Below, piece by piece: positions 8,178-64,000 of a stretch of 64,000 bases of DNA. The position numbers were made by a program, and so were the translations under genes. The stretch's first letter is position 1; each line of letters begins with the position of its first letter. Origin of the DNA: Chrysomallon squamiferum. Lineage: Eukaryota > Animalia > Mollusca. The stretch covers positions 4,774,001 through 4,838,000 of the forward strand of contig CM022675.1 in NCBI GenBank assembly GCA_012295275.1, written 5' to 3'. The notes beneath the pieces were generated by a model, which made no database searches, was not told the DNA's origin, and worked only from the letters and a program-made list of their open reading frames with translations.

Positions 8178-11100
8178 ATGTTGTCTACAGTTGTCGCTAT
8201 TTTTAATATTTTCTTCTTGTGTATGTCACCTACCCAGTCAGAAATATTAAGTAAGTAGATTTTATATCTGTATGATAGAAAGTCGGAATAGAACTAAATA
8301 AACTAACGTATTTTTGAGTTAATTATATCTCCTTAATAAGCTAAATATATGTACTCTCTCTCTCTCTCTCTCTCTCTCTCTCTCTCTCTCTCTCTCTCTC
8401 TCTCTCTCTCTCTCTCTCTCTCTCTCTCTCTCTCTCTCTCTCTCTCTCTCTCTCTCTCTCTCTCTCTCTCTCTCTCTCTCTCTCTCTCTCTCTCTCTCTC
8501 TCTCTCTCTCTCTCTCTCTCTCTCTCTCTCTCTCTCTCTCTCTCTCTCTCTCTCTCTCGCTGAGTGTGTGTATTTGTCTTTCTAATATTGCGGTCTCTGT
8601 CGCTGTTATTCTCTTTTTCTCCATTTCACACACATACAGCTTTACCCGCATCATTCACGCTCTATATACACATGCCAAACACTACAATTGACCTTTGAAA
8701 TGATGTCAGATACAAACACGTTTTTATACATAAATATATTTTCATTACTGCATTTTTTACTTGTCAGCGTTTACGGGTGAAAGGATATGAGGCCTTAAAT
8801 GGTATAATTTTTATTATTATTATTATTATCTCTTTTTTTAAATAATAAAATATTACAAATACAAAAATTAATTAATAATAAAATAATAATAATAATAATA
8901 ATAATAATAATAATAATAATAATAATAAAATAATAATAATAATAATATAACAACAACAATAATAACAAAAACAACAAGAAATATATGATATATATATATA
9001 TATATATATATATATATATATATATATATATATATATATATATATATACATACATGTAGCATGAAGAAGAAGAAATAAAGAAAGAAAGAAAACAGATACA
9101 ACATATATTAAACTGATAATTCCCTTAAAATCAAGACATATTATATTAGATCAAACATTAAGTGTACCTATACAGTTTCAGTAAAATAAATTGAAATGTT
9201 CGCTTCTATTTGACTTAAATATTTTGCCATTTTATTTCTATTTAACATAAAATGAACTAACTTTATCAAATTTATGAAAAAAGGGGGAAAAAAAGTCTAC
9301 GAGTTTATGTGATGCATATGTACAAAGCTCTGTATACTCTGTATACTCCTAGAAAAGCTAACTAAAAATTTGTGTTATGATTTTATTGAACTAGTCAAAA
9401 CCTAAAAGTTGATCACTTATTATTATCCCCTAAATGTTTCTGCTCAGTATATTTTCCAATACGTAGGTCCCTGGAGTGACGTGTCTGGTGACGCCATGAC
9501 AGACAATTACGTCATACTGAATGAGACCCAGTCGTGGTGGTCTGTTGTTTATTCTGGCTGTCAGTCAAAGGGAGGAAGACTTGTTACAAACTCTAAACCT
9601 GTGTCTAATGTCTGGAAAATAATGAAACCAAATGAAACTTACTGGGTTGGTGCCACAGAAACTTACACTCCTTGGATATGGACAGGTATATTAATATATT
9701 AGATTAATTAGTTAGAGAGAGAGAGAGAGAGAGAGAGAGAGAGAGAGAGAGAGAGAGAGAGAGAGAGAGAGAGAGAGAGAGAGAGAGAGAGAGAGAGAGA
9801 GACTACCAAGTCGTAAATAGAGAGGTTTAACATAAGCTTTTATTTATTTATTTATTTATTTATTTATTTATTTATTTATTTATTACTACTATTATTGTTA
9901 TAATAATAATCATCATCATCATCATTATTATTATTATTATTATTTTAATTAATTAATTTATTATTATTACTATTACTATTATTTATTTATTATTATTAGT
10001 AGTAATAGTATATTATTATATTATTGTTATTTATTTATTTATTTATTTATTTATTATTCAGAAACAAACGAAACACTGTTTAAATTTGTTGAAGATATAG
10101 CGGTGTCACAAACTGTGTCAAACAGTCATGTTACTATTGATGACAACAGTGTGTTTAAATGTTTCCAGTGGTGTAACACAACAAAGAGAAGATTTGGTTT
10201 ACAGGTGATTCTTTTTACTGTTAGATAAATCTATTCTTTGAAAGAATAATGTAGTTTAATGCTGAGTTGAAAACATGTATGTATGTACATATATATACAG
10301 TGGTACCTTGACTTAGCAGTTTAATTCGTTCCGTGGCCGAGCTCGTAACTCAATTGCTCGTATATAAAATCAGTTGTCCCAACTGAAATTTACTGAAATA
10401 CCATTAATCCGTTCCAGTCCCCCTAAAACCAACACAATTTTTGGTAACCTGTTTTTAAAATAAGAAAAATGTATTTATAAATGACAAATATGGTATAACA
10501 CATAATAAAATAGAATGTAAAAAAATAAATTGGTTTTGTAAAATGTACAGGGTTAGGTTTTCTCCATCTTTTCATGGACAAAGGTCTGCAGCTTAGAAAT
10601 TATTTTAACGCCTTTGGCTGAAGTTATTATAGACTTTTTCGACTCTTTCTGCTTCAATATTGTGCATGTCGTAGAAGTACTACGCTCGTTCTGCCCAGCC
10701 AAGTCGACTACACACACACCTCGCTGTTACATGCGTTAATTCAATGAACATCATCTGTTTCTTCTTCTCAGCACTCTTCTTTGCACTCATTTTGTTAGGA
10801 TCCATGGTCACGGATCCAGAAAAATTTGACATAAATACTGCAGAAAACGCGAGAACAAACACAATAAGAGATGCTTAAACGAGCGAAATAAAACGAGTGA
10901 AATAAAACGTAAAGTAAACGAGTGAAGTAAACACGTGAAGTAAAAGAAATAAACACGTGAAGTAAACACGTGAAGTAAAAAACGGAAGTAAACACGTGAA
11001 GTAAAAAAAGTAAACGAGTGAAGTAAACACGTGAAGTGAAGTAAACACGTGAAGTAAACACGTGAAGTAAACACGTGAAGTAAAACGTAAACGAGTGAAG

Positions 11101-14100
11101 TAAAACGTGAAGTAAAACGATTGAAGTAAACGTGAAGTAAAACGAAGGGAAATAAACACGTGAAGAAACAGGATAACTGCTCGTAACTGGGAAAACTTGT
11201 AAGTCAAAGAGCGAACTAAACTGTGTGTGTGTGTGTGTGTGTGTGTGTGTGTGTGTGTGTGTGTGTGTGTGTAAAACTCGTAAAGTATGTGTGTGTGTGT
11301 GTGAAATAAACACGTTGTGTGTGTGTGTGTGTGTGTGTGTGTGAAATGTGTGTGTGTGTGTGTTTGTGTGTGTGATGAAATTGTGTGTGTGTGTGTTGTG
11401 TGTGTGTGTGTGTGTGTGTGTATATGTGTGTGTGTGTGTAATTGTGTGTGTGTGTGTGACACAGGATGTGTGTTGGGTTTGTGTGTGTGTGTGTGTGTGT
11501 GTGTGTGTATGTTTGTGTGTGTGTGTGTGTGTGTTTGTGTGTGTCTGTGTGTGTGTGTGTGTGTGTGTGTGTGTGTGTGTGTTGTGTGTGTGTGTTTGTG
11601 TGTGTGTGTGTGTGTGTGTGTGTTTGTTTGTGTGGTGTGTGTGTGTGTTGTGTGTGTGTGTTTGTGTGTGTGTGTGTGTGTTTGTGTGTCTGTGTGTGTG
11701 TGTGTGTGTGTGTGTGTGTGTGTGTGTGTGTGTGTGACTGTGTATTTGTGTGTGTGTGTGTGTGGATGTGGGTGGGTGTAGCTATTTTTTTTTCTATCTC
11801 TCTCTCTGTACCTATCTATTTTCTGTCTGTGTACCAACGTATCTGTTTATCTATCTGTCTCTTTGTACTTCTCTCTATCTATAGTAAAAAGTTATAAAAT
11901 TACAAAAACTAAAGTTCAGTTACATACTGTCATATTGCAGGGAAGAAAATGTTTCTGCAGTCTTCCACAACATAAAACAAACTCTAAGAAAGATACAACA
12001 TTCAAGAAAGTAAACAAAGTACGCTGTCCTGGGACCTATGACGAGTTCTGTGGTGGTGCGGACGTTGTTTCTGTATATGAATTAGGTAAGAATTTTATTT
12101 TGATAATATACAGGTAGTAGAAGTATAAGGTTTTCCAGCCTTATTTCTATTTTTTTATTTTTTATTATTAGATCAGAAAAGTAATATTTGTAATAGTAAC
12201 AATAGTAGTAGTAGAAAAGTAATAGTAGTAGTTGTTGTTGTAATTAGAATTCAGTAGACGTTGAGCAGAAGTAGTAGTAGAAGTAGTAGAAAGGAAGATG
12301 TAGTAGTAGCAGTAGTAATAGTAATAATAGTAGAAGCAGTAATAGTAATAATAGCAGAAGTAACAATAACAATAGTAATAGTAGTAGTAGTAGTAGTATT
12401 AGCAGAAGTAGTAGCAGTAGCAATAATAGTACTAGTAGTAGTAGTAGTAGCAGAAGTAGTACCAGTAGCAATAATAGTAGTAGTAGAAAGAGTAGCAGGA
12501 GTTGAATAATATTAGAAGCAGCACAAATAACAGAAGTAGTAATAATGTTTGTAAAACTAACAGTATAGTAGTAATAGTAGCAGTAAACGTAGTAGTTGAT
12601 GCTGTAGATGATGTAACAGATGGAGAAGAAACAATACAAGTTGTGGGTGGCATCAGTAGTGGTAGTAGCAATAGAAACAGGAATAGTGGTGGTGGTGGTG
12701 GTAGTAGTTGTAACGAGAAGAAGATGAAATAGCGGTAGTATCACACAGACATTGTTTTTATATTAAAGAAATATTTTATTTCAGATCTGCCTGTTTCTGT
12801 AGATATAAAAAGCAGAACAAGTAAAAACAGCAACTGCGGCTACGTCAAATATGAAAATAACAAAATCACCCTTCAATTTGCAGACTGTAATACACAGTGG
12901 ACGTTAGCTGTTTGTCCAAGTATGTGGTTTATTTATTTGTTTGTTTGTTTGTTTGTTCGTTTATATATTTGTGTCTGTTTGTTTGTTTGTTCATTCGTTT
13001 CTTTTTTCTTTCCTTATGTTCTTTATTTGCTTCCGTTTTGACACCATATGTATTTGTGCATGAATTTTATCTTTATCTGTTTGCATTTGTATGCAACTAA
13101 TATTATATTCATTATTGAAAAATTCACAACAACAAACAATACAAAGAAGAGATGTTTAAATCCATAGAGTAATTTTACTTTACGTTTGTTCTACGTTTCA
13201 GAAAATAGTTTTATTCATGTGACAAATACGTGCAGAAGTGAGGTATGTATTTTAACACAACATTTAAAATGGAATGAAGCTAGAGTACAGTGTGGTGGAA
13301 ATTTGTCAAAACTGACAGACACAGCAGAGTCAGAACTGAAAACACTGATCAACCATGAATGGTCAACATACTGGATTGGTCTCAAACGAAACATTGAATG
13401 GAGGTGGATTGATGGTAAGAAAACAGAGATGAATAGAAACAACAAACATACAAAAATACATATTTACAAATATACATATATACGCACATACACAAATATG
13501 TCTTTCCTGATCACATGTTCATTGGCTAAATGTTTAGCCACATATGAAATACACAAATACACAGAAACACCTACACTCTTAGAGACACGTAGAAAACATC
13601 TATCTCTCTGTTGTCCAACTATTTATCTATCTACTAACAACCCTTACTATATACACGATTATATAATGATGTATGATGAGGCTACATTACAAATATTTCA
13701 TCTGTTTAATGAAAAGATTTTTCTTTCTTTCTTTCTTATTTTGTTTTCCTTTTTTCTTAAGGAAACCTTGTTACAAATCCTTCCAACAGTCATGAAACAG
13801 CTCATCAAAGTATTGCATGGAAGAGAAACAAAAATAACAACATTCCTAAAAAGTCCTCGACAAAATGTTCTGCTGTGTGTCAACTTTGTGAGTATTGTGT
13901 GTGTGTGTGTGTGCGTGTGCGTGTGCGTGTGCGTGTGCGTCTCAGTTTTTGACTAAAATGAAGAAAGTATTTTAGAAAACAGTACACCGACTTACAGAAT
14001 CACAGATACGTGGTTAGATATACAAAAGCAAGCATAATATACTAGATGCACAATATGAACACAAACATACACATATAGCAATATACTCAAACATCCATGC

Positions 14101-63383: not shown

Positions 63384-64000
63384 CGTCCAAAACGACACCA
63401 ACAGCGACAACGTTTCTGAAGGCAGTGGAAATGTTTATTTTGTTCTGGAAAATTCTGATTGAAAAGAATCTCAGTAGTAACTCGATCGATTTTTGAAATC
63501 CATGTAAACAGTGTCTCATCCACCAGTTTTTATGTTTTACTTCTTTTTCCTTTTTATAAAATCGAACCACTTCTTTATTGTAATTGACATCGTTGTTGTT
63601 ATTATTATTATAATTATTATTATTACTATTACTATTATTATTATTACTATTATTATTATTACTAATATTATTATTACTATTATTATTATTATTACTATTA
63701 TTATTATGATTATTATATTATTATTAATGTTATGACTATTATTATTATTATTTCTATTTTTATTATTACTATTACTATTATTATTTGTATTATTACTATT
63801 ATTACTATTATTATTATTATTAGTATTACTATTATTGTTATTATTATTACTATTACTGTTATGACTATTATTATTATTACTATTATTATTATTATTATTA
63901 TTACTATTATTAGTATTAGTATTGAGATTACTATTATTACTAAAAACCCATGTTAACAGTATCTCATGTCACAGTTTATTTTTTCTTTTGTTTTTTGATG

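Follow-up and report, generated by a model that had tools for sequence, protein, structure and literature searches.

The window considered here, a stretch of 64,000 nucleotides, carries on its forward strand two genes of the same layout, A and C, and the remnant of a third, B. Gene A begins with a signal-peptide-like exon 1 (8178..8250), which has a hydrophobic stretch in its sequence. Exon 2 (9467..9685) encodes the N-terminal half of lectin-like domain 1 and ends at the WxW motif, exons 3 (10062..10204) and 4 (11941..12085) encode the first and second halves of a WSC domain, the fold of exon 3 being taken from a relative, and exon 5 (12785..12919) encodes a predicted lectin C-terminal half with a three-cysteine pattern. 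Exon 6 (13202..13414) encodes the N-terminal half of lectin-like domain 2 and exon 7 (13762..13887) a degenerate lectin C-terminal half. A threonine-rich, mucin-like stalk (exon 8, 14525..14776), a transmembrane helix (exon 9, 15147..15222) and a last exon with an interrupted tyrosine-rich tail frame (15568..16057) follow. Like exon 2, exon 6 of gene A ends at WxW with a phase-1 intron.

Gene C repeats this order: a signal-peptide-like exon 1 (57981..58050), the N-terminal half of lectin-like domain 1 (exon 2, 58469..58693), the two WSC halves (exon 3, 58781..58917; exon 4, 59209..59332), a predicted lectin C-terminal half (exon 5, 59546..59686), a degenerate N-terminal half of lectin-like domain 2 (exon 6, 60022..60231), a degenerate lectin C-terminal half retaining the last cysteine only (exon 7, 61048..61200), a serine/threonine-rich stalk (exon 8, 61498..61686), a transmembrane helix (exon 9, 62672..62747; residues 418-438, mean hydropathy 2.9) and a 133-residue acidic tail (last exon, 62984..63383). 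Gene B (47641..51273) is a 3' part whose 5' exons are absent. It consists of the 3' part of exon 6 (47641-47751, with a phase-mismatched donor), exons 7-9 (49292-49438, 49760-49984 and 50078-50153) and a last exon that begins at 50385 and contains two frame changes in its tail part.

Exon models built on the window sequence gave GT-AG boundaries for 18/18 introns of genes A and C. The intron phases are 1,1,0,1,1,1,1,1,2 in both genes, so that exons 3 and 4 form a phase 1-1 pair. Both the layout and phases proposed by the first-pass annotation, and its description of the WSC exon pair as a symmetric module bounded by phase-1 introns, are therefore confirmed in A and C. Gene C has an open frame of 574 residues and is the sole intact copy of the three. 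In gene A, the last exon reaches a stop after 16 residues if the acceptor homologous to that of C is used; the tyrosine-rich frame can be reached by an acceptor at 15594 or by a frame shift, and a further stop lies near 15952. The stalk, transmembrane helix and tyrosine tail expected from the first reading hold for gene C, but the tail frame is interrupted in A and B is a 3' remnant.

B adjoins C without a gap, and A lies beyond two assembly gaps (17154-17353 and 35385-35584), two repeat arrays and an unrelated gene with TSP1 exons. A and C are 38% identical (165/431 aligned columns). The locus is a tandem cluster of divergent single-pass genes, as polymorphic transmembrane clusters (PTC/GRC-like) are. 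The tail of gene C has 9 tyrosines, 4 YxxL/I/V motifs that include one ITAM-like pair, and one ITIM-like motif. The tails of gene C and four gastropod relatives contain 9-23 tyrosines and 4-8 YxxL/I/V motifs, and the YxxL/I/V motif is absent from the tail of the relative in Lineus.

Relatives of the same layout were found in two snail genera, Gigantopelta and Haliotis, and in the nemertean Lineus (one representative). The closest named relatives of A and C are in snails. Every relative is annotated 'uncharacterized', which agrees with the earlier view of a clustered, divergent and unannotated family. The relatives occur as pairs on equal-length contigs.

Lectin-like halves and the WSC domain

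In an exon-by-exon Pfam search, the match of exon 2 to Lectin_C (PF00059, cut-off 22.6 bits) is confined to the N-terminal half of the model, at positions 4-57 of 107 in gene C (26.3 bits, E 1.3e-5) and 8-57 of 107 in gene A (16.6 bits, E 0.013). Exon 6 of gene A matches positions 3-59 of 107 (23.0 bits, E 1.4e-4). The N-half motifs W-x-x-A-x-x-x-C, a WIG-type strand and WxW are invariant columns of the family. Exon 2 is an N-terminal half only, as was first suggested.

The C-terminal half is harder to recognise. Exon 5 of A or C matched no Pfam lectin model. Its three cysteines are invariant in 6/6 family proteins. The fusion of exons 2 and 5, proposed earlier as a check, gave a divided answer. 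In Lineus the fusion reached 55.3 bits, compared with 40.5 when the N-half was scored by itself; none of 300 shuffles scored as high, and the match resumes in register at the long-loop Y-x-x-W. In the gastropods the fusion was no better than shuffles, with 275/300 as high for gene A, 64/300 for gene C and 27-289 of 300 for five relatives. This test has little power, because exon 7 of gene A likewise scores merely 3.2 bits alone. A profile of exon 5 from six gastropods exceeded 100/100 column shuffles by a narrow margin (12.9, the highest shuffle being 12.8) and over a match of 10 columns only; a profile from the window and Gigantopelta alone was not significant (21/100 shuffles as high). Identity between A and C falls in the order exon 2 (33/73), exon 5 (16/45), exon 6 (21/67) and exon 7 (5/38), a gradient that favours the pairing of exons 2 and 5. 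In sequence, exons 6 and 7 read as an ordinary contiguous lectin domain (Pfam 2-106 of 107 for the Gigantopelta relative P0005; profile match to NKR-P1A, E 4.5e-9).

As the first-pass annotation had stated, EPN, QPD and WND are missing from the C-terminal halves: none occurs in any C-half of either lectin domain in 8/8 ectodomains, and the sole QPD, in P0083, lies in helix 2, outside the loop. The proteins are not calcium-dependent, sugar-binding C-type lectins in this respect. The related proposal that the WSC domain replaced the sugar loop as a binding site is weakened. The WSC sequence does follow WxW directly, but the sugar motifs are absent as well from the second lectin domain, which carries no insert, Lineus retains part of the long loop after WSC, and the differences among transcripts are found in the lectin halves. 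Since the motifs are missing from both lectin domains, WSC is not a simple replacement for them.

WSC domains have eight conserved cysteines; in our alignment six are conserved in 7 gastropod sequences and eight in Lineus. Exon 4 matches WSC positions 47-82 of 82 weakly (E 0.011 in gene A and 0.16 in gene C). The domain falls below the Pfam gathering cut-off (PF01822, 27.8 bits) in all five full-length gastropod proteins with an intact exon-5 equivalent that were scanned (P0001, P0005, P0056, P0083 and P0090), with 19.4 bits for P0005 and 15.8 bits for P0056, whereas Lineus scores 32.1 bits, above it. The scan lists no WSC match for P0001, P0070, P0083 and P0090; P0090 has a precomputed PF01822 hit on record. 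The expectation that domain scanners would miss the split lectin domain has to be modified: the lectin half of gene C is above the cut-off, and it is WSC that falls below. One abalone member of full length has no call for either domain.

Transcripts and sequence variation

The family is transcribed and spliced. RNA contigs, which had been suggested as a check of the junctions, bridge or match 7/9 junction positions. One contig of 733 nt (run X3, record 16) contains gene C-like exons 1-2-3-4 in order and continues into exon-5-like sequence; exon 5 of gene C is matched with loose ends. Gene A-like transcripts bridge junctions 6-7, 7-8 and 8-9, and further RNA pieces match exons 4 and 5 of gene A. 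No contig was found across junctions 5-6 and 9-10.

Transcript variation is concentrated in the lectin halves rather than WSC. Compared with gene C, one transcript differs at 15/226 bases in exon 2 and at 3/259 in the WSC exons (Fisher p 0.0015), where RNA variants may represent alleles or paralogues and contigs may be chimeric. Of the exon 2 variant sites listed, 17/20 fall within 39 bases (58609-58647). Codon positions 1-2 hold 14/20, which equals the neutral expectation and so does not demonstrate positive selection.

Predicted structure

The structure was taken from an AlphaFold model of P0005, which is about 25-50% identical per module to the window proteins. Built on a 16-row alignment, the sole usable model of five has a mean pLDDT of 68.6 (the others 48.8-60.7). 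It predicts a WSC fold nested in a C-type-lectin fold directly after WxW. Residues 75-168 match yeast Wsc1 (7pz2) with Z 8.4-8.5, rmsd 3.0 and 92 aligned residues, and Kremen with Z 8.0. Exons 3-4, read earlier as WSC inside a lectin sequence, are accordingly borne out in a relative's model; in the Lineus model WSC is the only confident part. Lectin chains span the WSC, with Z up to 8.3, rmsd 2.4 and 86 aligned residues, an overall lectin fold.

The models differ on which half completes exon 2. In two comparisons with the model, 46/46 and 44/44 non-WSC rows run from residues 1-5 to 327-330. AlphaFold would thus pair exon 2 with exon 7 rather than with exon 5 as first claimed, a pairing taken from aligned ranges and model confidence. 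The equivalents of exons 5 and 6 are confident together (pLDDT 74-90), the exon 5 equivalent as three strands at 82-90, and those of exons 2 and 7 are at 48-70 or lower. In the outer domain, which is resolved poorly, residues 3-6 serve as the first strand. Foldseek on this model found no intact contiguous second domain; its lectin matches have rmsd 15-23 A, none at E <= 0.001. Three lectin-repeat proteins aligned to the ESM Atlas model of P0005 over 209-221 residues, with a TM by query of 0.45-0.47, and in another comparison 122 residues aligned over 26-227. These alignments hint at agreement with the pairing of exons 2 and 5.

Discussion

Genes A and C encode transmembrane C-type-lectin-like proteins whose function as receptors we infer. 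In the literature searched, we found no description of a WSC domain nested inside a lectin fold. Our leading reading, a tentative one, is that they are single-pass WSC-in-lectin-like proteins, likely calcium-independent recognition receptors, in which the partner of exon 2 is most likely exon 5 and that of exon 6 is exon 7. The two WSC exons, as a phase 1-1 pair, would have been shuffled into the phase-1 intron after WxW in the first of two tandem lectin domains; domain 2 has an intron at the corresponding position. Ligand specificity would most likely be set by variable surfaces on the lectin halves, with WSC as the conserved element. The ligands are probably protein or complex surfaces, as for NK-receptor-type domains, and their clustering may lead to tail phosphorylation and recruitment of SH2-domain signalling proteins.

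It is also possible, though we consider it rather unlikely, that the fold is interlocked, with exons 2 and 7 forming an outer lectin domain whose long loop holds both WSC and a circularly permuted lectin domain of exons 5 and 6. The best AlphaFold model, with lectin chains running over its whole length, the Foldseek result and the joint confidence of exons 5 and 6 point this way. However, this is one model of five from a shallow alignment, with the outer domain resolved as poorly as described above, and the ESM Atlas model suits normal pairing better. Exons 6 and 7 are moreover contiguous as a lectin sequence, the best-conserved half would have to join the least-conserved one, and folding during synthesis would favour exons 2 and 5. 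A reading in which exon 5 is a separate cysteine-rich hairpin on WSC and no lectin half, leaving exon 2 an orphan or paired with exon 7 only, would explain the lack of a Pfam lectin match, the negative fusion test in 7/7 gastropod sequences and the short profile match. We regard it as very improbable, since in Lineus the segment homologous to exon 5 scores significantly as a lectin C-half, none of the three cysteines varies, the model has the expected three strands and the fusion test is of low power.

With either pairing, the architecture may be real and the function adhesive, sensory or developmental, as in co-receptors with WSC of the Kremen or polycystin type, instead of immunity or self-recognition. 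Among the WSC matches, the solved animal structure is that of Kremen, which modulates Wnt according to PDB titles, and the family is old enough to include a nemertean. Tandem and broken copies, the low paralogue identity, patchy variation and many YxxL/I/V motifs make this quite improbable; such traits fit the polymorphic single-pass clusters of Biomphalaria linked to parasite resistance in the available part of that report (PMC13712769). A bolder extension of the interlocked fold, which we consider unlikely, would make these proteins lophotrochozoan-wide, unannotated polymorphic receptors, with an outer lectin loop holding WSC and a permuted lectin domain, WSC exons that hardly vary while hypervariable lectin surfaces are recombined around them, and signalling tails with many tyrosines.

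Returning to the single-pass receptor with exon 5 completing exon 2, the best PDB match of the family profile is the NK-receptor-type NKR-P1A (E 4.5e-9; structures 3t3a/2m94), and with CD72 (5b1r) this type gives the top lectin fold (Z 8.1). These domains, like A and C, lack calcium and sugar motifs. NK-receptor-type (group V) lectin-like receptors are type II and single-domain. In contrast, A and C are type I, with an N-terminal signal-like exon and the membrane helix after the ectodomain, and they combine WSC and a mucin stalk with two lectin folds. The WSC fold matches those of Wsc1, Kremen1 (5fws) and fungal WSC3 with Z 8.0-8.5 over 81-92 residues; unlike them, the gastropod WSC has six cysteines, is below the Pfam cut-off and lies inside another domain. 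WSC3 binds long beta-1,3-glucan, according to the excerpted text of PMC7816849.

Among molluscs, the oyster proteins CgCLec-HTM and CgCLec-TM1 also span the membrane and carry both a C-type lectin domain and, in the cytoplasm, a tyrosine motif; in the accessible portion of a review (PMC13027682), they signal via Syk and ERK, a model for tail signalling. That portion describes a carbohydrate-recognition domain and hemITAM and leaves WSC unmentioned. Gene C has the transmembrane helix and cytoplasmic YxxL/I motif of the CgCLec-HTM type; by description, A and C differ in their split tandem domain, missing sugar motifs and many-tyrosine tail. Bivalve CTL-domain-containing proteins (Saco et al., PMC10140915), in the sections available, likewise unite lectin and WSC in a single mollusc protein that is uncharacterised and for which a role in immunity is proposed; WSC is listed there as an accompanying domain, neither nesting nor a split domain is described, and these proteins may include family members. 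In the snail Biomphalaria, PTC1/GRC, PTC2 and LG5R are also clustered, variable genes for single-pass receptors, but their ectodomains are fibronectin III, EGF and fucolectin, WSC occurring 0 times in the available text (PMC13712769).

Inventories of mollusc receptors that rely on domain scans overlook this family or count it wrongly. In the C-type lectin fold, which is among the largest recognition folds of animals, the long loop forms the binding site. A domain inserted there and kept from nemerteans to snails means that the fold tolerates a domain-sized graft. If true, the interlocked fold would represent a naturally occurring circular permutation of the lectin fold; none was found in the literature searched. 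For host-parasite and host-symbiont specificity in snails, clusters of variable single-pass receptors are among the foremost candidates, so that a family whose fold can be defined, whose variable patch is mapped and whose tails carry tyrosines can be tested directly.

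Exon organization of genes A and C

Genes A (8178-16057, forward strand) and C (57981-63383, forward strand), two of the three members of the lectin/WSC gene cluster in the window, were each rebuilt from the sequence as ten exons. All 18 introns are GT-AG, and their phases are 1,1,0,1,1,1,1,1,2 in both genes, so that the WSC exons 3 and 4 form the phase 1-1 pair with symmetric borders that the first-pass annotation had claimed. The WxW motif marks the exact end of exon 2 and likewise of exon 6. Pfam places exon 2 of gene C on the first half of Lectin_C (positions 4-57 of 107, 26.3 bits) and exon 2 of gene A on the same half (16.6 bits), in agreement with the claim that this exon encodes only the N-terminal half of a C-type lectin domain (CTLD). 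Exon 6 of gene A falls on Lectin_C 3-59, exon 4 is placed weakly on the latter half of WSC (E 0.011 in A and 0.16 in C), and exon 5 matched no lectin model in Pfam. The 574-residue open frame of gene C includes a membrane helix (418-438) and ends in a tail with 9 tyrosines; genes A and C are identical at 165 of 431 aligned residues.

Transcript evidence

Part of the region was present in four RNA runs of one study, whose contigs come from several samples, with alleles and paralogues mixed and chimeras possible. RNA supported the proposed junctions from exons 1-4, contiguous in a gene C-like contig of 733 nt, into exon-5-like sequence, as well as 6-7, 7-8 and 8-9 in gene A-like contigs; no contig spanned junction 5-6 or 9-10. 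The first 30 loose bases of the 733-nt contig have 23 matches to gene C exon 5 (59546-59575; about 77%, by eye). Exons 5-7 of gene C had no RNA cover at 90% likeness, which was not counted as absence.

Differences among transcripts are concentrated on the lectin half. For one transcript, exon 2 carries 15 differences from gene C in 226 bases and the WSC exons carry 3 in 259 (p 0.0015); of the 20 listed exon 2 variant sites, 17 fall within 58609-58647, around helix 2. The transcript is about 99% identical to gene C over the WSC exons (58781-59332) and 93% over exon 2, falling to about 77% where exon 5 begins. Such a patchwork suggests that paralogues have undergone gene conversion or swapped exons, or that the contig is chimeric.

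Relatives in other species

In order to find relatives, we built a profile from the two exon 2 peptides (A and C). It gave 76 matches, and we kept the 10 that had either the family layout or an exon 2 resembling that of the family; the others resembled ordinary lectin proteins. The WSC cysteine pattern was present in 9 of 89 collected proteins, all from 4 loci. The whole layout was found in Gigantopelta aegis (XP_041372159 and XP_041371958), at two Haliotis rufescens loci (LOC124111981 and LOC124111983) and in Lineus longissimus (LOC135483519), and a word-based search with the family alignment added a Haliotis rubra protein. All relatives found are annotated as 'uncharacterized'; judged by them, a gastropod source is the most likely one for the window. 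The Gigantopelta pair and the Haliotis rufescens pair each lie on equal-sized contigs, which suggests that the members of each species pair are linked; three exon-2-like frames are on contigs of one size, 106,080 bases. The annotated isoform X2 of Haliotis rufescens LOC124111983 (P0070) skips the exon 5 equivalent and is left with three lectin halves.

Word-based protein searches, which had little reach, returned 0 of 106 candidates for the exon 2 alignment against longer proteins, 2 of 7997 for the family alignment, and no bivalve members. Lineus residues 45-250 retrieved nothing but the sequence itself among 281. Because these searches reached little, the range of the family is a lower bound. 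Two metagenome scans turned up no member, neither among 76 pattern matches in one nor among 65 in the other.

Position of the WSC domain and pairing of the lectin halves

The ectodomain of a Gigantopelta relative (P0005) was modelled with AlphaFold from a 16-row alignment that included the window exons 2-5 (mean pLDDT 68.6, pTM 0.64). Over residues 75-168 the model matches Wsc1 (Z 8.4, rmsd 3.0 over 92 aligned residues) and, at Z 8.0, Kremen; this stretch lies within the lectin match, which is consistent with the claimed nesting of WSC in a CTLD fold; by this prediction WSC is nested whether the exon 2 half is completed by exon 5 or by exon 7. In the corresponding model of the Lineus ectodomain (mean pLDDT 38.6) WSC alone was folded.

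For the pairing alone, we lean slightly towards completion of exon 2 by exon 5. In the ESM Atlas model of P0005, 209-221 residues aligned to three proteins with lectin repeats, and another alignment of 122 residues covered 26-227 (feature matches were all below 0.9 and served as leads only). These alignments, together with exons 6 and 7 reading by sequence as one continuous domain, fit such an ordinary pairing and count against an interlocked fold, in which exon 2 and exon 7 would close around both WSC and a domain of exons 5 and 6 in circularly permuted order. The interlocked fold is a plausible but less probable arrangement, read from alignment ranges and confidence rather than from coordinates: all non-WSC rows of the P0005 fold searches (46 of 46 and 44 of 44) run from residue 1-5 to 327-330, Foldseek found no intact second domain in that model, and its exon 5 and 6 equivalents are confident together. 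A complex prediction for gene A exons 5, 6 and 2, made without alignments, was uninformative (score 0.25, mark 0.34) and is given no weight.

It is quite improbable, again for the pairing alone, that exon 5 is no lectin half. The exon 2+5 fusion, which the first-pass annotation had proposed to score with a lectin HMM, was scored with a profile built on 229 ordinary lectin domains and compared with 300 shuffles. In Lineus it was clearly above the controls (55.3 bits, against 40.5 for the N-half alone; 0 of 300 shuffles as high). The other fusions did not stand out from their shuffles, of which 275 scored as high for A, 64 for C and 27-289 for five gastropod relatives. In profile-profile comparison, exon 5 of six gastropod sequences matched marginally, over 10 columns and with 0 of 100 shuffles as high; A, C and P0005 by themselves had no such support (21 of 100). 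The three cysteines of exon 5 are invariant.

Past WSC, the Lineus sequence picks up at the long-loop motif Y-x-x-W, which puts the WSC insertion at the front of the loop and not in place of the whole loop. The earlier proposal that WSC had simply replaced the sugar loop was rejected on this ground and because the uninterrupted second domain is also without sugar motifs.

State of the cluster

Gene C is the only intact gene in the cluster. The last exon of gene A meets a stop after 16 residues if the acceptor homologous to that of C is used, and its 120-residue tyrosine-rich frame requires an acceptor at 15594. Retained sequence of gene B, a 3' remnant, starts in the 3' part of exon 6; the donor of that exon is in the wrong phase, and the frame changes twice in the tail. 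The exon 6 remnant starts exactly at the end of a 12-kb satellite (35628-47621, given also as 35628-47079; 63.5 copies of about 171-bp units) with runs of TAACCC, a telomere-type repeat.

Between A and B there are two assembly gaps, a tandem repeat (17358-33273) and an unrelated gene. The repeat begins directly after an assembly gap and has about four copies of a unit of about 3.8 kb with about 98% identity; each unit holds a short frame resembling an exon, and the unrelated gene follows on from the last copy. Exons of this gene (33400-34740) include one of thrombospondin type 1 (about 34550-34740; Pfam TSP_1, E 0.0054) and a cysteine-containing exon near 34160-34310 without a Pfam match. A broken hAT-family DNA transposon (53300-55150; Dimer_Tnp_hAT, E 1.7e-5) lies between B and C.

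The C-terminal motif G-N-x-Y-F-V-L-E is common to A, B and C (16000-16057, 51220-51273 and 63400-63462, respectively). In A a stop precedes it, in B two frame changes do, and in C it sits in a different frame. Candidate explanations of this displacement are indels in the assembly, decay, and small introns that escaped recognition. The inner cysteine pair of exon 7, the second lectin C-half, is gone in B (49292-49438) and C (61048-61200); gene A retains one of the two cysteines, and Gigantopelta and Haliotis retain both.

Proposed ligand type and signalling, and relation to known receptors

EPN, QPD and WND are absent from the C-half of either lectin domain in 8 of 8 ectodomains, the uninterrupted second domain included; the first-pass annotation had noticed this for the split domain. 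A sugar-binding C-type lectin was rejected as class on this basis. The closest solved structure to the family profile is NKR-P1A. These two observations point to binding that would be calcium-independent. Between paralogues and species, conservation is equal for exon 2 and WSC (37% each) and lower for exons 5, 6 and 7 (26, 30 and 22%). Four YxxL/I/V motifs are present in the gene C tail, an ITAM-like pair and an ITIM-like motif among them; tails of four gastropod relatives have 6-8 YxxL/I/V motifs and the Lineus tail has none.

Full-text searches of a literature collection that covers few subscription journals gave no account of a WSC domain set inside a lectin domain, nor of a lectin domain in permuted order. 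Passages of PMC10140915 name WSC among the domains that accompany lectin domains in uncharacterised bivalve proteins, which may include members of this family. As described in portions of the respective articles, oyster CgCLec-HTM and TM1 signal via Syk (PMC13027682), Biomphalaria has clusters of variable single-pass receptors without WSC (PMC13712769), and fungal WSC3 binds beta-glucan (PMC7816849); the part of PMC7895826 that discusses Gigantopelta pattern-recognition receptors does not mention WSC.

An assembly artefact was rejected in view of the RNA junctions and the independent relatives. The WSC-in-lectin layout is real and expressed, is older and wider than a single cluster, and is apparently not in print. 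The proteins would be putative recognition receptors, in which the lectin surfaces may set specificity, WSC would be the conserved element, and the tail may signal by phosphotyrosine. The window genes are a variant of transmembrane C-type-lectin-like receptors with a putative function of this kind.
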